NCBI GenBank assembly: GCA_048941265.1
Contig: JBHLNT010000086.1
Location: forward strand, 1 to 16,775
From: Promethearchaeota archaeon
GTDB taxonomy: Archaea > Asgardarchaeota > Lokiarchaeia > Sigyniarchaeales > SOKP01
Direction: 5' to 3'
DNA: 16,775 nt
A model generated the notes under the pieces. That model saw nothing but the letters and a program-made list of their open reading frames with translations. It searched no databases and was not told where the DNA came from. A program made the translations under genes and the position numbers. Positions 17-13,705 of the stretch are shown one piece after another (within the stretch, counting starts at the first letter, position 1; every line of letters starts with the position of its first letter).

Positions 17-1474
17 ATGTCTGATATTTTCACAAGAAATATAAGTAATTCTGATTTATTATGGCGTGTTAGAGCTTATGTTATAGGATTTCTTTTAGCA
101 GATGGGACAATTAGAACTTATCCTTATGAAATAAGTGCAACTCAAAAAGAACAAGATAAAGAGATTTTATCAGAAATTCAAAAAGCGTTAGGGGGTAAAA
201 TTAATGGTCCTGATGAAAATAACAAATATCATTTAAATGTCTTTAATAAAGAATTAGTTTTAACATTATTCGATTTTGGAATGGTACAGGCACATAGTAA
301 GGAAGAAATTGCATCAACAATCTATCCTCCGGACTTTATACAGAATAGAATTTTTGGGCAAACTTTGATAAGAGACTTTATTAGAGGCTTTTATGATGGT
401 GATGGATGGTTTACTGGCTCTTTTTCCAGAGGGGATACTAGCTTTAAAATAATTGGACCATTTAATTTTTTAAATTCACTTAAACAACTTGTATTAATTG
501 AAGTACCTGGATTAACTTCTTTCATAACAAATGAAAGAAAACAATATTTCATAATTGGTGATCAACAATATCAATTGTTTTCTAAATTTACCATATATCA
601 AAGAAGTTATGGTTTCTATCGTTTAAGTCCATTGGACTTAGAAAAAGGAGAAATAGTAACCTTAGATCATCCATGGTTAAAAATACTTCATTTTGGTGGT
701 AATTTGAATGCAATTCGACTATTTAATTGGCTTTATGAAGATGATGATAAATTTGATAAATTTGATATCCAGGGAATAAAAATTTGCGGAAAAAGGAAAT
801 TCGAAAAAGCGCTCAATGAACTTGGAAATGCTAGATTTCGCAGTGAAAGATTAGCCCCAGACTGGAAGGATATGCTGTATGATACCATATTGCAAATGCA
901 ACCTCGATTTTATAAAACACACGAATTAATTGAGTTATCAAATACGATTCTATGGGAAAAATTAGAATTACATGATCTAATTAATTTATATGAAATGAAT
1001 AAAATCCATAATAGGGACAAATTTGTTGAAAGACTAAAATTTCTTGAATATTTGGATAATGTAATAGTTTCATATCGTTCAGGAAGAGAGAATTATTATT
1101 ATAGCAAAGTATGTTCTTCAATAGAGATACCTCCATATTTAACAAAATATATAGATTTAATAGATAGAAATGGAATAAAACAAAATTTAAAAAATTTAAT
1201 AGTATTAATTCTCATTGGAAATTACATGAAATTTAATGATCTTTTAAATGAAATAAGAAATAAAGGAATTTTTCATGAACATGGACTTTATTCCAAAAAT
1301 ATAAAGTTATCTTTAGCTCAACTAAAATCATTTGATATCGTTATTGTTGATGATGAAGAAGAGAAGTTCGAAAACCAAAGTTTCTTCTTAAACACATCAG
1401 TTTTAAATAAATATTATAAAATGAATATACTAAAATTAAAGAAAGAGTTAACTAGTCTCTTTTATAAAATTTAA
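17..1474 (+). CDS. Free-standing two-motif LAGLIDADG homing-endonuclease-like protein with long C-terminal extension (possible winged-helix domains)
   Basis: 485-aa ORF. Two LAGLIDADG helices, AYVIGFLLADG and RDFIRGFYDGDG, about 100 aa apart, both with the terminal acidic residue. GGAG at 2-5 upstream. No intein splicing motifs at the termini. Confidence 0.85.
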   Translation: MSDIFTRNISNSDLLWRVRAYVIGFLLADGTIRTYPYEISATQKEQDKEILSEIQKALGGKINGPDENNKYHLNVFNKELVLTLFDFGMVQAHSKEEIASTIYPPDFIQNRIFGQTLIRDFIRGFYDGDGWFTGSFSRGDTSFKIIGPFNFLNSLKQLVLIEVPGLTSFITNERKQYFIIGDQQYQLFSKFTIYQRSYGFYRLSPLDLEKGEIVTLDHPWLKILHFGGNLNAIRLFNWLYEDDDKFDKFDIQGIKICGKRKFEKALNELGNARFRSERLAPDWKDMLYDTILQMQPRFYKTHELIELSNTILWEKLELHDLINLYEMNKIHNRDKFVERLKFLEYLDNVIVSYRSGRENYYYSKVCSSIEIPPYLTKYIDLIDRNGIKQNLKNLIVLILIGNYMKFNDLLNEIRNKGIFHEHGLYSKNIKLSLAQLKSFDIVIVDDEEEKFENQSFFLNTSVLNKYYKMNILKLKKELTSLFYKI

Positions 1475-1510: not shown

Positions 1511-3520
1511 TTAACCTATTTCTACATCCATTTTCTTACGCTCTTCAAGAAGAGAATCAACAACAGAGGGATCTGCTAATGTTGTCACATTTCCAATATC
1601 TGTTCCAGAAGCGATTGCCTTCAAGATTCTTCTCATAATCTTTCCACTACGCGTTTTAGGCAAATCATCAGCAAATTGGACGACATCTGGCTGAAAAACA
1701 GGACCAATTTCTTGTCTCACATGCATTATTATATCCCGTTTCAATTCTACTGATTTCTCAACGCCTTGAATTAATGTTACAAACGCCCAAATGGCTTGAC
1801 CCTTAATTTTGTGAGGAAATGGTGCCACTGCTGCCTCGGCAACTTTAGGATGGCTCACAATCGCAGATTCAACCTCCATAGTTCCGATTCGATGTCCAGA
1901 AACCTTTATAACATCATCAAGTCGTCCTAAAATCCAATAGTATCCATCCTCATCTCGGCGTGCTCCATCACCCGTATAATAATGTCCTGGATATCTCTCA
2001 AGATAGGTTGATTTAAATCGCTCAGTATCACCCCATACATCTCTTAGCATTCCTGGCCAAGGTTTTGCGATGCAAAAATATCCACCTTCGTTTGGTTCTG
2101 TTACCTCATCACCCTCCAAGTCAAAAATTACAGGTTTAATACCAAAGAACGGAAAACAACATGAACCTGGTTTAGTAGGTGTAGCAGTTGCTATTGGTGT
2201 CATAATAAATCCCCCTGTCTCTGTTAGCTAATAATTGCGAATTGCAACCATTTTTTGCCAGTATGTATCGACAATGGGGCATTTTCCTTTTCCAACGACC
2301 CTATGATACCAAGTCCAAGCCTCGGGATTTATTGGTTCTCCCACTGTGCCTAGGACTCGAATAGAGCTAAGATCATGCTTATTTACAGGTTCTTCACCAT
2401 AGCGCATTAAAGCTCTTATAGCTGTCGGTGCAGTATAGAATTGCGTGACCTTATGCCTTTCTACAATATCCCAAAATCTATCTACTGCGGGATAGGTGGG
2501 TACGCTCTCGAACATTAGTGTTGTAGCACCGTTCGCTAAAGGACCGTAAATGATGTAGCTATGTCCAGTAATCCATCCTATATCGGCAGTACAGTACCAG
2601 ATATCGCCGTCCTTATAATTAAACACAACTCTATGCGTAAATGAAGTGTAAAGGATATATCCCGCTGTAGTGTGTTTAACTCCTTTAGGTTTTCCGGTTG
2701 TTCCGCTGGTATATAAGATGAATATTGTATCTTCGGAATCCATCTCTTCGCACTCGCAATCCTCGTCCATTCCAGCTATAAAATCGTCGTACCAGATATC
2801 TTTGGATGTACCCGATACTTCATTCCCGGTGCGTTTTACTTTTATTACATGTTCTATGGTGGGAATATCATCTATAATCTGGGCGACATCGGCCATTTTC
2901 GGGTATGTCTTTCCCGCCCTAACGGTTTCATCGCTTGTAAACAAGAGCCGCGAATCAGAATCTTCGATTCGGTCTTTAACCGCTTCTTTAGAGAAGCCAC
3001 CAAACACTATCGAATGGATTATTCCTAGTCGGGCGCACGCTAACATTATGATGGCCAATTCAGGAAGCATCGGGAGCCAGATAGTTACTCTATCACCTTT
3101 CTTCAGCCCTAGCTTTTTCATTCCGTTGGCGACTTTACAGACTTCTTTTTTAAGTTCGTTGAAAGTGAATTTTCTTACCTCTCCGGGTTCATCTGCTTCC
3201 CAGATGAGAGCAATATGTTTCCCTTTTCCCTTTTTGATATGCCGATCGATGCAATTATAACATATATTCAGTTTTCCACCAACAAACCACTTACCAGGAA
3301 ATAAATCTGTTTTCTCCCAGACTTTATCATATGGTTTAAACCAATCTATAGATTTTGCTTGTTTATCCCAAAATCCTTCCATATCGTCGATACTCTGTTG
3401 CCATAGTTTTTTATACTCTTTAAATGACATTCCAGTTTTAGCGTATTTTGGATTTAAATCCTTAGGATCAAATATACGGGTTTCAGTAAGGATAGATTCC
3501 ATTTTATCTTCTTCAGACAT
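1511..3520 (-). CDS. acs: AMP-forming acetyl-CoA synthetase (acetate-CoA ligase), interrupted by a 30-nt insertion carrying an in-frame TAG; 659 aa if the insertion is removed
   Basis: ORFs 2228..3520 and 1511..2203 share one frame. Motifs: FILYTSGTTGKPKG, ADIGWITGHSY, GTVGEPINPEAW, YYTGDGA, GRLDDVIKVSGHRIG, PKTRSGKIMRR. The junction reads DTYWQ-KMVAIRNY*L-TETGGFIMTP. Deleting 30 nt restores DTYWQTETGG (2010-30=1980 nt). Confidence 0.93.
2226..2255 (-). other. 30-nt insertion in acs; candidate BHB/BHL-type archaeal mRNA intron
   Basis: Minus-strand RNA AAAAAUGGUUGCAAUUCGCAAUUAUUAGCU (boundaries can slide by 1-2 nt). Internal stem UGGUUGC/GCAAUUA. Junction 4-bp helix CUGG/UUAG, each strand followed by CA^A and CU^A. 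Flanking exon stem CCCCAUUGUC/GACAGGGGG. The insertion is certain from the sequence; splicing is inferred. Confidence 0.55.
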
Positions 3521-3802: not shown

Positions 3803-5701
3803 ATGGAAAGTATTGATCTATTAGATAAAGACTGGAGAGAGAAATGGAAAGATAAGGAAATTACTCCCAAAGAGGCAATTGGTAAGATTATTCCTGGAAA
3901 TCGGGTATTTATTGATACGGGGTGTAGTGAACCGCAGGCATTAACAGATGAATTAATCAAACAATCTGAGAAATTGATAGATACTGAGTTAATTCACTTT
4001 CTCACAATTTATCCTCAAAAATATTTTAAAGATAAGGCAGAAGATTTGTTTAGACATAATGCGTTTTTTATAGGGAAAGCTCTCAGAGAGGAAATAAATA
4101 TAGGGCAAGCAGATTATACCCCTATTCTAGCCAGTGAAATTCCCTCCTTATTTCTCTCAGGTAGAAAATATTGTGATGTTGCATTAATTCAAGTAACTCC
4201 TCCGGATCGATATGGGTTCTGCTCTTTTGGAGTTAATGTAGATGTTGCTAAACCCATTGCTCAATCTGCTTATATTACTATTGCCGAAGTAAATCCCCAA
4301 ATGCCCAGAACTCTGGGAAATAGTTTCATTCACATGAAAGAAATAGATCATTTTGTTTATAATGATACATCTCTCATAGAATTTGAGTTTAAGGAAAAAA
4401 ATGAAGTAATTGAAAGAATTGGAAAGAATGTGGCAGGTATCATCCAAAATAAATCAACAATCCATATTGGTAATGGATATATCCCAAATGCTTGCTTGAA
4501 ATATTTATTTGAAAAGAGAGATCTTGGAATGCATTCTCATTTTATAACTGATAATATCATCCCCTTAATAGAAAATACTGTATTAACTTGCAGAAAAAAA
4601 AATTTCCATCCCGAGAAGATTATTACTAGTTATGCTTTAGGAACAAAAAAATTATTTGACTTCATTAATAATAATCCTTACATTGAATTTTATCCAACTG
4701 ATTATATCTGCAATCCCCGCTATATCGCAATGAATAAAAATATGGTTTCAATAAATCAAGCATTACAAATCGATTTAACAGGACAGGTAAATACTTCAAC
4801 TAAAGGGTATAAATTTCATACAGGAATAGGGGATACTGTAGATTTTATGAGAGGAGCAGCGCTTTCTAAGGGGGGAAAACCTATAATAGTATTACCGTCT
4901 ACAAGAAAAAATGGATCAGAATCGACTATAGTCTCCCATTTGGATGAAGGTGCAGGGATTATTCTTTCTCGGGCGGATATACATTATGTTGTAACAGAAT
5001 GGGGTGTTGCTCATCTTCATGGTAAGACAATTCGTGAAAGAGCTTTAGAATTGATTTGCATAGCTCATCCAGATTTTAGACAAAGCTTATTGGAAAATGC
5101 TAAAAATCTGAATTATATTTATTCTGATCAATTACTACCCTGTGATGAAGAGGGAAATATTTGTATTTATCCAAAACATTATGAAACCTATTTTAAAACG
5201 AGAACTAATGAAAAAATATATGTTCGCCCAGTCCGTACTACCGATGAACCTTTATTAAAAGAACTATACTATTCATTGGATGAGAGAGATCGATATCTAC
5301 GCTTTTTTGAAGTGAAAAAAGAGTTTACACATTCAAAAACCCAACATGAGGTTAATATAGATTATGATACCATATTTTCAATTGGAGCTTTTGTAGGAGA
5401 TATCACAAATCAAGAAATGGTCGGAAATGCTTCTTATTATTATAATCCCAGAAATAATATGGCTGAATACAGCTTTATGGTTAGAGAAGATTATAGAGGT
5501 AAAGGGATTGGATCTTTTTTATACCATCATTTAATCATAATTGCTAAAGAAAAAGGGATAAGAGGGTTTTACGGAACAATTCATATTCAAAATAAACAGA
5601 CGGTACAAATTATAAGAAAAGGGGGGTATACGAAAATTACACCTCCTGAAGCCGGAGAAAAGGAATTATTTTATGAAGTATTTTTTGATAAAGAGAATTA
5701 A
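3803..5701 (+). CDS. Acetyl-CoA hydrolase/4-hydroxybutyrate CoA-transferase-fold domain fused to C-terminal Pat-type GNAT acetyltransferase
   Basis: N-part: DVALIQVTPPDRYGFCSFG, IAEVNPQMPRTLG, SINQALQIDLTGQV, DFMRGAALSKGGKPII, HYVVTEWGVAHLHGK, IAHPDFR. C-part: VRPVRTTDEPLL, DRYLRFF, AEYSFMVREDYRGKGIG (acetyl-CoA-binding motif A). Confidence 0.9.
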   Translation: MESIDLLDKDWREKWKDKEITPKEAIGKIIPGNRVFIDTGCSEPQALTDELIKQSEKLIDTELIHFLTIYPQKYFKDKAEDLFRHNAFFIGKALREEINIGQADYTPILASEIPSLFLSGRKYCDVALIQVTPPDRYGFCSFGVNVDVAKPIAQSAYITIAEVNPQMPRTLGNSFIHMKEIDHFVYNDTSLIEFEFKEKNEVIERIGKNVAGIIQNKSTIHIGNGYIPNACLKYLFEKRDLGMHSHFITDNIIPLIENTVLTCRKKNFHPEKIITSYALGTKKLFDFINNNPYIEFYPTDYICNPRYIAMNKNMVSINQALQIDLTGQVNTSTKGYKFHTGIGDTVDFMRGAALSKGGKPIIVLPSTRKNGSESTIVSHLDEGAGIILSRADIHYVVTEWGVAHLHGKTIRERALELICIAHPDFRQSLLENAKNLNYIYSDQLLPCDEEGNICIYPKHYETYFKTRTNEKIYVRPVRTTDEPLLKELYYSLDERDRYLRFFEVKKEFTHSKTQHEVNIDYDTIFSIGAFVGDITNQEMVGNASYYYNPRNNMAEYSFMVREDYRGKGIGSFLYHHLIIIAKEKGIRGFYGTIHIQNKQTVQIIRKGGYTKITPPEAGEKELFYEVFFDKEN

Positions 5702-7306: not shown

Positions 7307-8545
7307 TTAAAGATCTAAGCCTCGTTTTTTCGCAAATAAATCCTTTAATTCATTTAGAACTTGAGAGCGTGCTGTTGCTGCGCCTCTCTGAACGGGCTCT
7401 TCAGAGGGAGTTTGAATTTCTATAGGCAATCCTCCCTGAGCAATTTGAAATGCTCCACTTTCAATGGCTCTAAGACGAGAATCAAGATCATTAAGTTGGC
7501 TGGATATACTTTCTGATAATCGTATAACAGCGTTCATCGTTTCTTCTAATATTCTGCCTAGGCCTTCTACTTTCTTGTAAGTAGGATCTGTGACTGAATA
7601 CGCCTTCATAACGTTTTTAATATATTTTGAAAACCTCGGTTCATTTGAAATAAGCGAATAGATTGAGGTTAAGTAAATCTCATAATCAAAATCGTATTTT
7701 GTCCCATTAAATAGTTCTTTTAAATTATCTTTTAAGAATTCAACATTTAATAATACTGTAGGATCATTTCTTAGGTCAGGATCATATTTGTGAACAAAAA
7801 TTAAAATATATGGATTTTCTTCTAATGTTGTCAACATATCAAGGATATCATTAAAATAATCGAATGATTCATCAAATCGTCCCGAATCTTGTACATCTAC
7901 AACATAGATAAGTAAATCTATTTGCAAAAAATACTTTTCTGGAGTTTTAAAGTATTTTTTTCTAAGTACTTCTTGGCCTCCAAAATCCCAAATGAATAGA
8001 TCAAGTGTATTCGTCTTAATGTGTTTTCGATCAACTCCCTTCGTTGGTTTTATTAAAGCTAAGTCACTTATCCCGAGCCGTCCACCAAATTTAGTAAGGA
8101 TTGCTGTCTTTCCTGCATTATCTAAGCCAACTACTATCACTTTTTGCCCCGTTTTTTTCTCTTCTATAGATTCTTTCTTAATACTTTTAATAATAGAGCT
8201 TATTGTTATTGCTTTATTTAAATTTTCTTCAAGGGTGGGATGATTTGCTTTGAGTTTCTCTATTTTAACTTCTAATTCTTTCTTTTTTTCCTTAAGTTCT
8301 TCAGGATCTTCAATTTTTTCAAGATCAAGTAATTTTTCGAAAGGTTTTTCTTTATCCAGTTTTGCAATTTCTCCGATATTGATAATATTGAAATTTTCTT
8401 CTAAATCTTTAGAAAGTCCTTCATCTACAAATTTATAGGTTGAAATTGGTAAATTTAAAATCTCATCTAGAGTTTTTAGTTTCTTAGCTACCTTTGGATC
8501 AATAAACTTTGCGAAAATTTTAATTACCGTAGTTTCTGATGCCAT
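7307..8545 (-). CDS. Ras-superfamily small GTPase (Arf/Rag-like, Asgard type) with N-terminal accessory domain and C-terminal coiled coil
   Basis: G1 GLDNAGKT, G2 PT, G3 WDFGGQ, G4 HKYD, G5 TSI. About 130-aa N-terminal extension. Heptad-like C-terminal segment ILEETMNAVIRLSESISSQLNDLDSRLRAIE. Confidence 0.9.
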   Translation of the reverse strand: MASETTVIKIFAKFIDPKVAKKLKTLDEILNLPISTYKFVDEGLSKDLEENFNIINIGEIAKLDKEKPFEKLLDLEKIEDPEELKEKKKELEVKIEKLKANHPTLEENLNKAITISSIIKSIKKESIEEKKTGQKVIVVGLDNAGKTAILTKFGGRLGISDLALIKPTKGVDRKHIKTNTLDLFIWDFGGQEVLRKKYFKTPEKYFLQIDLLIYVVDVQDSGRFDESFDYFNDILDMLTTLEENPYILIFVHKYDPDLRNDPTVLLNVEFLKDNLKELFNGTKYDFDYEIYLTSIYSLISNEPRFSKYIKNVMKAYSVTDPTYKKVEGLGRILEETMNAVIRLSESISSQLNDLDSRLRAIESGAFQIAQGGLPIEIQTPSEEPVQRGAATARSQVLNELKDLFAKKRGLDL

Positions 8546-9949: not shown

Positions 9950-12900
9950 TTATTGAATTATTTCAGTTAACTCATTTTCCTCGTCAAATAAAGGCAAGCC
10001 TATTAAAAATAGTTTAAGTTTTGGTCTAAATTCCTCTAACTTCTCAACTAATACATCCAAAATTAACAACAATAATGAAACATAAAAAGTTTCCTCTAAC
10101 AAGGTTTTACTCATTCCAAGATTATCTAAATAGGAAATAACTTTAACTTTAATTTTTAAATTTGAATCTTGGTCTTGCGATTTTAATAATGAAAGTCCAT
10201 ATAAAAGAATTAAGAGAGAGCCTGTCTGATAATCTTTCCTTTTTATAAAACTATCTGCTAAATCCAAGTACTTGTCTGCAGCTTCTTTAAAAGAATTATC
10301 CCTTAGATAATTTAAGATCTCATCATAATATCGTTTCTTTGTGGCTTTTCTTTTCTTTATAAGATCTTCATTCACACTCTTAATATCTCCCATTTTTTGT
10401 TGGAGTGCTGCAATAATTTGATCTAATTCTAATTTTAGCTTAGATAATTCAGCACCCTCTTTTTTTATCATAACCTCCTTTTTATCATCTTTTATAATGT
10501 CTTCACCAGCTAGAGTAGTCAAGAATTCTATTTCTGGTTCGAAAAGCATTAATCTTTCACTAAGAATATTAATTGTAATGTTGATTAATTCTTGAATATA
10601 GTTCTCAAATGCTAAAAATACATATTCCATAAACTGAATTTCTGGCAATGACTCTAACTCATCCTTGAACACTGTCAACTTATTTAAATTATTTTCATAT
10701 ATTGCTTTAGCATTAAAAAAATCCCTAACTTTAATTAAAATCATTGAGCCTATAATTAATCCAATGGCAGCATGTTTGTAGAATTTTTTTTCTATTAATT
10801 TATTATAGGATTCAAGATAGATTGAAGATGCTTCTAATAAGTTATTTTTTGATAATTCTTCGATTGCCTTATTCCAATAATCTCTCCTCATTATTTTCCT
10901 TTTAGCAAATTCTTGTTTATCGATTTCAATTTTTTTCGCTAAAGTATTGATTTCACTCCTAAGTTTAGCAATTTCACCAATTCCTAACTCGAATTCTAAA
11001 ATTTGTTCTTCTTCTTTATATTCTTTACCTAACACTTCATAAAGAATTCGAATTTCTTCATCAAATAAGGGAAGATTTTCAAGATAAGATAATGCTTCCT
11101 TAAGTTTTGGTTCATCTTGCAATTTTTCCATTTCTAAAATATAATCAATTAAAGTAAATGGAAATGTTTCTGTAAATAATTTACCTGAGCTGGATAATTC
11201 ATATTTAATTTGATTAAAGAAATTTGTCATTTCTTTAATTTTATTATCTTTTAACAATAATAGACAAGCCACAGCTAAGGAAACCCCAGCTAAATTATAT
11301 CTTTTTCTTTTTTCTAATCCAATTATACTTTCGTAATAATATTTAATTGCTTGTTCATATTCTTGCTTTTTTACAGAATTTAAAGCATCTACAAGATAAG
11401 CTCTCTTTAATCCTTTTCTTTGTTTAAATTCATTTTTTCTATCATGTAAAGCATCTTGAGCTTTCTTCTTAATAATGGAAAGTTTTTCTTTTAAGAATTC
11501 AGCTCTTTTAGATTCAATTACCATTTTAGATTCAAGAGCACTTTCATATGCTTCTAATTTTTCTAGCTGTTTATTTAATTTTGATTTATACTCTGGATTT
11601 TCAATTTTATCAATAATTGTTTGCGCAGAAGGATAATCTTTAAGAGCTATAAAGATTTCTGCAATTTTTTTATACAATTTATTAAAAGTAATCTTATCTT
11701 TTTCTTTATCCAGATATGCTGAAAATATTGTATCAACTTTTTTTATTAAATGCGTTGCTTTATCAATCCCTATTTCATTTTCTTCAATTTCAACAATTCG
11801 TAAAGCTTCATTTTTAATAACCTTAATATATAATCTACTTATTTTTTTAGATTCCTCATAAAGCATTAAATTTCTAAAAATTTTATTAGACATCTCAAAA
11901 AATTTTTCATTTTTCTCAAATTGCTCTTCTTCTTTTATTTCCTTTAATTTTTCAAAATATTTAGGAAAAATCCGAGCTATGTAATCTTTTCCCTTATCTT
12001 TTGATAAATATGAGAAACTTTTGAAGAAAATATCAAATTGTTTCGCATCTATCAAAATATCTAATGATTTTGTTAAAATTTGATTTGCGATCTCTTCTTT
12101 ACCAATATTATTAAGGAAGACAGACTGGTTTTTTATGACTTTTGCAGCATTAAGAAATTCTTTTTTCTTCTGAAAATTATTAGCTTCCTTTAATACTTGA
12201 GAATTCATCTCAGCAATTATACTCATTTCGGTATTAATAAACTCTTTTAGTATATCAACCCCTCTTTGAATATTCTCTTCAACTTTTTTCTTTTTAGATG
12301 CTTTATAATCTTCTTCTGCTTTCGTGATTAATTCTGTGAGTTTTTGTTTTAAATCATATGAACTTAATTTATTAATTAATGTTCCAGCCATAGGAAAATT
12401 AAGTTCTTCAATAAGTAACTCAATCATTTTTTCTAAACATTTATCTAGATTAGGTTTTTTTAATTTGTAACTATCCCAGATATTTTCCATTTCATCATAT
12501 TTTTCTTTTGCTAAATAGACCTCTTTTTCGTCTATTTTTTGTTTAAGTATTTCCTTTAAAATATCGATCTGCTTATTAGTAAACTCATTTAAGTTATCGA
12601 AAAGCCCTTCTCGTTGATATATATGAATACTATAATATAATTGAACTTTAGCAGCCTCAAAATTTCCAATCGAAGCTAAATAATTTACTGCATTAATTAT
12701 TTTATCTGCTATATTCTTTAGAATTGGTAAGACTTGTTCATGTGGCAATCTTTCAAGGACTTTAAAAGCTTTATCACACTTACAAGCTGAAATCCAAGAA
12801 GTTATAGCCAATTTAAAACTTTTTTGTACCAAGTCTTGGTTATCTAGTTCAATAGAGGCCCATTGACCAGCATTTTCATATTGATTGGCTGCAGTTTCGT

Positions 12901-13705
12901 AATTTTTCTTATTAAATTGCTTGTTTCCTTCTAAGATCATCGCATCATGATAACTTTTTCTAAACTCCTTATATCTACTTTTATCAATATTTTCCAAAAT
13001 TTTTGAGGCTTCTAAATAAAGATTTATTTTCGAAAAAAGATAAGCTGCCTGTTCGCAATGTATATAATACTCATCGCTATTATAGATTTCAGATATTGTT
13101 GCAGCTTTTTTCATTACTTGGGCTGTAGAAAAATAATTTTGTTGCGCAAAATAAGAATTTGCTAACTCGATAAAAATTGGGAATCTCATCCATGCATTTT
13201 CAATATTCAGTGGAGTGTCACCCGAAATCATAGCAAGACACAAACATTCAAGTGGTTGATGAAATAAATTAGGAGGTAGATTTACGAATGCCTCAAGCTC
13301 GGGATAATTTTTCCACACATATTCTAATAACTCATTTATAGAGATGGGGATAATTCCCGATGAATCATAATATATAATTACAACCGGGATGGGAGGGTCT
13401 CGTATAACAGATCTAATTATTGAATAATACAACTCAAATATTTCTAATTCTTCTTTTACAAGGGGATTTAAAAAAAATATCACTCCATCAACCGTAGGTA
13501 TCAATTCGTCGAAATCTGCGGCTATTAAATCCGTGATCACATTAACCTCTAAGTCGCAAACATTTTCTAGAGCATTAATTTCCTTATACCATTCTATGAG
13601 CTTAAGTTCCTCTTTAAATTCTCCTGAATCCAAAAATGCTCTTGTCACATATTCTACTGAAGATCCAGGGTCTCCCAAAATCAATATTTTAAATACATAA
13701 CGCAT
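9950..13705 (-). CDS. Large alpha-helical (TPR/SNAP-like) repeat protein with N-terminal degenerate small-GTPase-like domain
   Basis: 1251 aa. Starts YVFKILILGD and has DGVIFFLN and IPVVII strands typical of a Ras fold, but no GK[ST]. Followed by A..Y..A helical patterns and three C-terminal repeats ending LPLFDEE/LMLFEPE/LPLFDEE. Confidence 0.7.
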   Translation of the reverse strand: MRYVFKILILGDPGSSVEYVTRAFLDSGEFKEELKLIEWYKEINALENVCDLEVNVITDLIAADFDELIPTVDGVIFFLNPLVKEELEIFELYYSIIRSVIRDPPIPVVIIYYDSSGIIPISINELLEYVWKNYPELEAFVNLPPNLFHQPLECLCLAMISGDTPLNIENAWMRFPIFIELANSYFAQQNYFSTAQVMKKAATISEIYNSDEYYIHCEQAAYLFSKINLYLEASKILENIDKSRYKEFRKSYHDAMILEGNKQFNKKNYETAANQYENAGQWASIELDNQDLVQKSFKLAITSWISACKCDKAFKVLERLPHEQVLPILKNIADKIINAVNYLASIGNFEAAKVQLYYSIHIYQREGLFDNLNEFTNKQIDILKEILKQKIDEKEVYLAKEKYDEMENIWDSYKLKKPNLDKCLEKMIELLIEELNFPMAGTLINKLSSYDLKQKLTELITKAEEDYKASKKKKVEENIQRGVDILKEFINTEMSIIAEMNSQVLKEANNFQKKKEFLNAAKVIKNQSVFLNNIGKEEIANQILTKSLDILIDAKQFDIFFKSFSYLSKDKGKDYIARIFPKYFEKLKEIKEEEQFEKNEKFFEMSNKIFRNLMLYEESKKISRLYIKVIKNEALRIVEIEENEIGIDKATHLIKKVDTIFSAYLDKEKDKITFNKLYKKIAEIFIALKDYPSAQTIIDKIENPEYKSKLNKQLEKLEAYESALESKMVIESKRAEFLKEKLSIIKKKAQDALHDRKNEFKQRKGLKRAYLVDALNSVKKQEYEQAIKYYYESIIGLEKRKRYNLAGVSLAVACLLLLKDNKIKEMTNFFNQIKYELSSSGKLFTETFPFTLIDYILEMEKLQDEPKLKEALSYLENLPLFDEEIRILYEVLGKEYKEEEQILEFELGIGEIAKLRSEINTLAKKIEIDKQEFAKRKIMRRDYWNKAIEELSKNNLLEASSIYLESYNKLIEKKFYKHAAIGLIIGSMILIKVRDFFNAKAIYENNLNKLTVFKDELESLPEIQFMEYVFLAFENYIQELINITINILSERLMLFEPEIEFLTTLAGEDIIKDDKKEVMIKKEGAELSKLKLELDQIIAALQQKMGDIKSVNEDLIKKRKATKKRYYDEILNYLRDNSFKEAADKYLDLADSFIKRKDYQTGSLLILLYGLSLLKSQDQDSNLKIKVKVISYLDNLGMSKTLLEETFYVSLLLLILDVLVEKLEEFRPKLKLFLIGLPLFDEENELTEIIQ

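Follow-up and report, generated by a model that had tools for sequence, protein, structure and literature searches.

A candidate bulge-helix-bulge mini-intron in the acetyl-CoA synthetase gene of an Asgard archaeon, with same-site inserts in its relatives

Work by Watanabe in 2002 and by Yoshinari in 2006 is said to have described a bulge-helix-bulge (BHB) intron in the cbf5 pre-mRNA of Crenarchaeota. Here we describe a 30-nt insert, very probably an intron of this type, in acs, the gene for AMP-forming acetyl-CoA synthetase (Acs), on a 16,775-nt stretch of DNA (contig JBHLNT010000086.1; the whole stretch is called the window) from an Asgard archaeon. The source genome, G000, is a metagenome bin of 361 contigs and 5.0 Mb, 91% complete and with 4.8% contamination. 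To judge from the relevant part of Yokobori 2009 (PMC2738675), the cbf5 intron is the closest known case, and in the parts of PMC5829648 (its refs 22-24) and PMC2738675 that deal with BHB introns in mRNA, cbf5 of Crenarchaeota is the one gene cited. On those accounts cbf5 resembles acs in being a protein-coding gene with a short BHB intron, removal of which restores the frame, in a host with a two-subunit EndA, and also in a patchy distribution among relatives that points to gain and loss. The cbf5 hosts are Desulfurococcales and Sulfolobales, whereas acs is a central-metabolism enzyme gene of an Asgard family, and unlike cbf5 it presents eight insert positions, up to six introns per copy and a mostly stereotyped 30-nt layout. 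Splicing of cbf5 has been shown experimentally, whereas for acs we infer it.

Bypass elements, such as those of T4 gene 60 and the mitochondrial byps, are also short hairpin inserts with stop codons inside conserved coding sequence; bypass needs matching take-off and landing codons and has no 4-bp helix with 3-nt bulges. The acs site, unlike these elements, lacks matching take-off and landing codons. Among spliced mRNAs, the XBP1 intron measures 26 nt. XBP1/HAC1 splicing resembles what we propose for acs in being a spliceosome-independent, protein-catalysed removal of a short intron from mRNA, with cuts in structured RNA and joining by a tRNA ligase, as set out in parts of PMC4090602 and PMC13149111; the ligation is done by RtcB or Trl1. 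It differs in that the endonuclease is IRE1 rather than EndA/TSEN and cuts in twin hairpin loops rather than in a BHB, and in being a regulated stress switch, a role that is hypothetical for acs. Archaeal pre-tRNA BHB introns share with acs the motif, the cut rule, the expected enzymes and the occurrence of multiple small introns per gene (as described in part of PMC4090602), and differ in their substrate, which for acs is an mRNA coding region. The portion of a recent preprint that concerns them (bioRxiv 10.64898/2026.10.13.758758) describes Asgard tRNA genes as heavily interrupted by introns; the word mRNA has no occurrence in that preprint. A full-text literature search, with supplements outside its reach, returned no description of BHB introns in Asgard protein genes.

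The acs insert and its predicted cut register

Translation of the minus strand across acs (Table 1) gives one frame with a single internal stop: DTYWQ is followed by KMVAIRNY, a stop and L, and then by TETGG. Exactly 30 surplus nt with an in-frame TAG thus lie between YWQ and TETGG, and in an alignment to 17 orthologues these 10 surplus codons are the sole departure of acs from collinearity. A reading made earlier from the letters of the window, here the sequence-only reading, had described the minus strand at 2211-2279 in the same way (30 nt, TAG, no other lesion), and its helix coordinates also agree with the sequence: CUGG at 2261-2258 with UUAG at 2231-2228, and an exon closing stem of CCCCAUUGUC (2279-2270) with GACAGGGGG (2219-2211). 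Pfam domains are found on both sides of the stop, ACAS_N and AMP-binding on the half before it and AMP-binding_C on the half after it. The region folds with a minimum free energy (MFE) of -22.2 kcal/mol (z = -3.17; 1 of 200 shuffles was as stable), and is thus more stable than shuffled sequence. Rfam 15, with its group I and group II introns, had no match at E <= 1 in window 1900-2600, and the 30-mer is unique in the 361 contigs of the genome at up to 3 mismatches.

Three equivalent cut pairs would give the same spliced product. The sequence-only reading weighed two of them, and it is the third that has canonical geometry: a central helix H of GGCA with AGCU, 3-nt bulges that read AA↓A and AA↓C, and, abutting the bulge, a 9-bp hairpin (h'), with exactly 30 nt excised. 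This register is the same stacking register as that of the MFE helix UGGC/GCUA, which had been taken to excise 32 nt and to shift the frame; read as GGCA/AGCU, it takes 30 nt out. The cut register that had been preferred, CUGG/UUAG, needs a 7-nt bulge, and relatives speak for the alternative. In G117 (locus L044) and in locus L046 the 3' bulge is AU↓C, where the GGCA/AGCU register keeps an invariant Thr and a CUGG/UUAG cut would put Ser in its place. Bulges are 3 nt in every case, and H has 4/4 pairs in G005 and G139 and 3/4 in G000; in the alignment of nine sequences at this site, the fourth H position is A-U in those two and unpaired in the other seven. The 9-bp exon closing stem fares less well. 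It is paired in 74% of cells, above the 30-56% of slid controls, but is only weakly kept. A cut after the second base of each bulge fits canonical pre-tRNA, in which the first two anticodon bases lie within the 4-bp helix according to the pertinent part of PMC4090602. The earlier proposal of a 30-nt BHB-type intron, rather than a knockout, in an Asgard acs mRNA thus stands, with its structural details revised as regards the register.

Table 1. Features of acs and its candidate intron in the window (↓ marks a predicted cut).
Feature	Position	Strand	Remarks
acs, AMP-forming acetyl-CoA synthetase gene including intron	1511..3520	-	ACAS_N, AMP-binding and AMP-binding_C domains; 659-aa frame without 2224-2253
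Predicted exon 1, 1267 nt	2254..3520	-	Ends after base 1 of a Thr codon, giving a phase-1 intron
Candidate 30-nt BHB mini-intron	2224..2253	-	One bulge nt, then two 9-nt stem strands around a 5-nt loop, followed by 4 nt of central helix and 2 bulge nt
Predicted exon 2, 713 nt including stop codon	1511..2223	-	dN/dS of exon 2 against G003 is 0.020
Central helix H, exon strand GGCA	2256..2259	-	Partners 2226-2229: G-U, G-C, C-G, A.A
Central helix H', intron strand AGCU	2226..2229	-	Pairs with 2256-2259
5' bulge AA↓A	2253..2255	-	Predicted cut between 2254 and 2253; cut rule from PMC4090602
3' bulge AA↓C	2223..2225	-	Predicted cut between 2224 and 2223; AU↓C in G117/L044 fixes the register
Intron hairpin h'	2230..2252	-	2244-2252 with 2230-2238, 9 bp; loop 2239-2243; 5/9 pairs change on both sides; 90% of cells paired
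In-frame TAG in intron	2228..2230	-	In unspliced mRNA, translation would end at 430 aa

Inserts in relatives and in a second gene

We searched for acs in 41 genomes (relatives and G000), with a match in 32, and then family-wide in 135 genomes, with a match in 97; the family-wide table was judged by match length and stop flags, and suspicious rows were inspected. At least 12 of the 97 genomes have acs with one or more inserts. An insert at the YWQ/TETGG site (site 4 below) occurs in at least 11 genomes: G000, G001, G005, G006, G117, G127 (inferred), G143, G084, G058, G139 and G145, and in the congeners G001, G005 and G006 it is a 30-nt insert exactly between YWQ and TETGG. G140 has inserts at other sites only. 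Site 4 is free of insert in G003 (92% protein identity), in G009 and G011, and in every aligned orthologue from another genus. Separately, the acs of G007 (L029), partial and otherwise 91% identical, has an in-frame TAA at codon 36 without any insert, which could reflect either a nonsense mutation or an error in sequencing.

Among the nine distinct site-4 sequences the BHB structure is paired in 88.9% of cells, against 30-47% with slid partners. Both members of a pair have changed in five hairpin pairs, and the covariation score was reached by 0 of 500 shuffles. The alignment of relatives, which the sequence-only reading had proposed as a check, thus shows same-site inserts with a covarying hairpin. 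Homology of the site-4 introns is indicated by bases within them that do not vary. In the gene tree intron-bearing and intron-free acs interleave: G006 (one intron) is sister to G009 (none), and G001 (four) stands beside G003 and L057 (none). We read this as an old site-4 intron, homologous across three genera, that would have been lost precisely in many lineages; lateral spread is a possible alternative source of the patchy distribution.

Site 4 is one of eight insert positions in acs, at reference nt 940, 1036, 1042, 1084, 1193, 1270, 1431 and 1515 of the insert-free G003 gene. Together they hold 28 insert instances in 11 genomes, of 30 nt (18 instances), 32 nt (six), 33 nt (two), 42 nt (one) and 60 nt (one); the 60-nt insert, in G001, is perhaps one longer intron or a composite. 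There are six inserts in G145 up to the end of its contig, five in G058 and four in each of G001 and G139. The loci with two to six candidate mini-introns are L038 (G001), L064 (G058), L065 (G139), L117 (G145) and L122 (G140). A row for L099 with a 909-nt alignment gap near its end was left out as an artefact.

These inserts share one layout. All 28 have one register with at least 3/4 pairs in H and with 3-nt bulges, the register being the best of 29 shifts; analyses restricted to product-equivalent registers gave the same registers. The nine positions of h' have at least eight pairs in 20 instances, at least seven in 23 and at least six in 27. When partners were slid by odd offsets, 0-1 of the 28 passed H >= 3 together with h' >= 7, against 21 unslid, two unslid rows having been misplaced by alignment (even-offset slides keep the true helices, hence are not independent, and odd offsets alone served as control). 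In that test the pairwise alignment put the site-4 gaps of G000 and G001 9-12 nt off, which was corrected in the layout count of the 28 inserts. When 17 thirty-nt introns from three sites were set in a single structural frame, pairing reached 86.3% of cells, compared with 29-40% after sliding.

Removal of all inserts in silico at the BHB cuts leaves each of the 11 genomes with one open frame. Aligned to the Acs of G003, the restored frames have no gaps in eight of the 11, four gaps in G005 and in G006, and one in G000. Without 2224-2253, acs of G000 encodes 659 aa with the motif DTYWQTETGGF, 92.1% identical to the insert-free G003 protein. In G001, removal of four inserts, 32-nt ones included, extends the longest frame from 316 to 661 aa, with 94.7% identity over 660 positions. 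The restored frame of G140 is 662 aa, and those of G139 (626 aa) and G145 (523 aa) are bounded by the contig end. The 32-nt inserts shift the frame, which the ribosome could not tolerate as insertions; they must therefore either be removed from the RNA or leave the genes dead.

A second gene of G000 carries an insert of the same kind. In this acetoacetyl-CoA-synthetase-like gene on contig C40, 30 nt that include an in-frame TAA are inserted between SWM and MWNW (L003 about 1191-1220, minus strand). Its layout is that of the acs intron: H is UGGA with GCCA, the bulges are UG↓A and AA↓A, and the hairpin is paired at 8/9 positions. Seven of 17 orthologues, from four genera, share the insert and its site and show compensatory changes such as G-C to A-U in G020, and all seven fit the canonical arrangement of a 3-nt bulge, a 4-bp helix and a 3-nt bulge.

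Weighing the explanations

We consider it very likely that window 2224-2253 (minus strand) is a BHB mini-intron of the acs pre-mRNA that is excised by EndA, with the exons joined by RtcB. The acs transcript would fold so that exon GGCA pairs with intron AGCU, the central helix being flanked by two 3-nt bulges on opposite strands and accompanied by the 9-bp intron hairpin. The splicing endonuclease, probably a heterotetramer of two EndA paralogues, would make one cut in each bulge, following its second base, and ligation of the exons by RtcB would yield an mRNA for a 659-aa enzyme with an intact YWQTETGG; translation of unspliced mRNA would halt at the intron TAG. Genes for such enzymes are present. 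G000 encodes one RtcB, on C70, and two EndA paralogues (PF01974), one on C258 of 201 aa with N and C domains and one on C323 of 198 aa with a C, catalytic-type domain only. The section of PMC5829648 on Asgard EndA describes an (alpha-beta)2 type with an L1 loop that cuts relaxed motifs, and the paralogues and RtcB of G000 fit such a relaxed-motif endonuclease. ARAGORN reported 27 tRNA genes in G000, 18 of them with intron calls of doubtful quality that we did not use further; these calls fit the heavily interrupted tRNA genes reported for Asgard archaea.

A possible objection is that the insert leaves the RNA by another route, through another hairpin-recognising nuclease or in another register such as CUGG/UUAG with enlarged bulges. 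We give this a small probability. The motif of G000 is relaxed, and the CUGG/UUAG helix is likewise paired in relatives (94% of cells, mostly G-U), so pairing alone cannot choose between the registers; but all 28 acs inserts and the seven of the C40 gene fit a 4-bp helix between two 3-nt bulges, each cut behind its second base, whereas CUGG/UUAG entails the 7-nt bulge and the Ser in G117/L044 noted above. That the insert plainly inactivates acs, as a pseudogene or an insertional knockout, seems very improbable to us. The TAG does stand in frame within the catalytic motif, and short acs 3'-end fragments elsewhere in the bin (described below) suggest some decay or strain mixture. However, a comparison of G000 with G003 gives a ratio of nonsynonymous to synonymous substitution rates (dN/dS) of 0.022 for all 659 codons, with 0.023 for the part upstream of the stop and 0.020 for that downstream, far from the value near 1 that the sequence-only reading had associated with a knockout. 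Synonymous sites are saturated between G000 and either G005 or G006, both insert carriers, and together with a dN/dS of 0.02 on either side of the stop this rules out a recent knockout. The insert has been kept at one site in at least 11 genomes across that saturated divergence, with a covarying hairpin; genes with 32-nt inserts have perfect frames after removal; and among the acs paralogues of G000 none is closer than 32% identity.

A solution at the ribosome, either translational bypass as in T4 gene 60 or reading of TAG as pyrrolysine to give a 10-residue insertion, is hardly any more credible. The insert is a hairpin with a stop codon, and that of the C40 gene is flanked by ATG...ATG, like take-off and landing codons. 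In acs, however, the flanking codons differ, CAA preceding the insert and CUA being its last codon, and bypass leaves the 4-bp helix, the fixed 3-nt offsets and the 32-nt inserts unexplained. Against pyrrolysine, homologous inserts carry TAA or no stop, and a PylS search of G000, a 91% complete genome, gave a best PylS_Cterm score of 36 bits, where the cut-off is 178. In an ANL enzyme, moreover, an insertion of ten residues that separates Q from TE in the ATP-binding motif would be disruptive. An assembly or binning artefact, finally, is extremely unlikely. The genome is a metagenome bin of many contigs with some contamination, but contigs from three samples of one study (X1, X2 and X4) span 2224-2253 with no differences and no joint that skips the insert, and independent genomes have homologous inserts at the same site. 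X1 is possibly the source sample; X3 belongs to another study and leaves the insert uncovered.

Several points weigh against an EndA-spliced intron and should be set beside this evidence, the pairing of CUGG/UUAG in relatives among them. The central helix of G000 has an A.A mismatch and the exon helix h beside the motif is 2 bp long, so that the G000 motif is of the relaxed HBh' type, not strict hBHBh'. Ten of the 27 evaluable inserts have no in-frame stop (17 do, and the stop is TAA in some copies), which would make some unspliced forms open to translation. Apart from the sample that may be the source, the DNA evidence is limited to two samples, both from that one study. A look for sequencing runs containing the stretch turned up no RNA run, and cleavage, ligation and the identity of the acting enzymes are here deduced from genomes. 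Genome-wide searches of G000 found only two genes with such inserts. A paralogue-spanning census, which sees only families with paralogues, returned 23 junctions, of which only those in acs and the C40 gene have mini-introns. Ten others, on inspection, had no BHB-type insert (they were conserved-position TGA codons, adjacent genes whose paralogues are fused, or an interruption by a stretch of N), and the remaining 11, judged from the table alone, were TGA sites, frameshift-like breaks and single in-frame stops. A structure-plus-open-reading-frame (ORF) census, seeking BHB geometry whose removal joins two long frames, found 675 junctions against 648-659 in mis-registered controls and was uninformative; stricter filters left 22 against 21-23, not above control.

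A covariance model built from the 17 thirty-nt introns (MAFFT misaligned seven of 24 cross-site sequences, which were left out) found only the acs intron in G000; since it missed the known C40 intron and scored 150 of 11019 candidates, that search says nothing about abundance. The genome scan suggested in the sequence-only reading has thus yielded one further gene with a 30-nt BHB-type insert, but no structural signal above control. Apart from introns, three paralogues on C251, C301 and C350 (e.g. C350, minus-strand offset 13356) share an in-frame TGA at one conserved site (FPTDDCxI-TGA), which the alignment with intact paralogues spans; TGA codons at conserved paralogue positions in G000 are probably selenocysteine.

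Neighbouring genes and meaning for the family

Elsewhere in G000, fragments at C250:24928-25197, C252:1-177 and C252:5819-6010 match only the last 60-90 Acs residues, with 78-93% identity. Possible origins are remnants of genes, target ends duplicated by an integrated element, and a mixture of strains in the bin.

In the window, a 485-aa ORF at 17-1474 (plus strand) converges on the acs 3' end; its match to LAGLIDADG_3 is weak (30 bits). A homing-endonuclease link that we considered for this ORF gained no support: G000 has a single copy of it, and homologues adjoin acs with introns (L065, L056) as well as acs without (L020). Divergent from acs on the other side, 3803-5701 (plus strand) encodes a fusion protein that joins a CoA-transferase (AcetylCoA_hydro N and C domains) with a GNAT acetyltransferase. 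Farther along, 7307-8545 (minus strand) encodes a 412-aa protein with an Arf/Rag-type small GTPase domain, and the 1251-aa ORF at 9950-13705 (minus strand) has no Pfam match at E <= 1e-5.

Taken across the family, acs is likely a mosaic gene, with at least eight mini-intron positions and up to six or more introns per copy, in which close relatives differ in the introns they have kept and expression would depend on EndA and RtcB. If this is true, the closest archaeal relatives of eukaryotes would have protein genes with several introns each, mRNA splicing catalysed by proteins, and an active turnover of introns, and splicing could be a checkpoint on acetate activation. Gene callers will take such genes for pseudogenes, for split genes or for proteins that carry 10-residue insertions, and metabolic reconstructions of Asgard archaea would be distorted as a result. 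With their patchy distribution, the introns would also lend themselves to studies of how introns are gained and precisely lost. In the lineage nearest eukaryotes, there would then be an exon-intron architecture served by tRNA-splicing enzymes, to be placed beside the XBP1/HAC1-type splicing that eukaryotes have retained.

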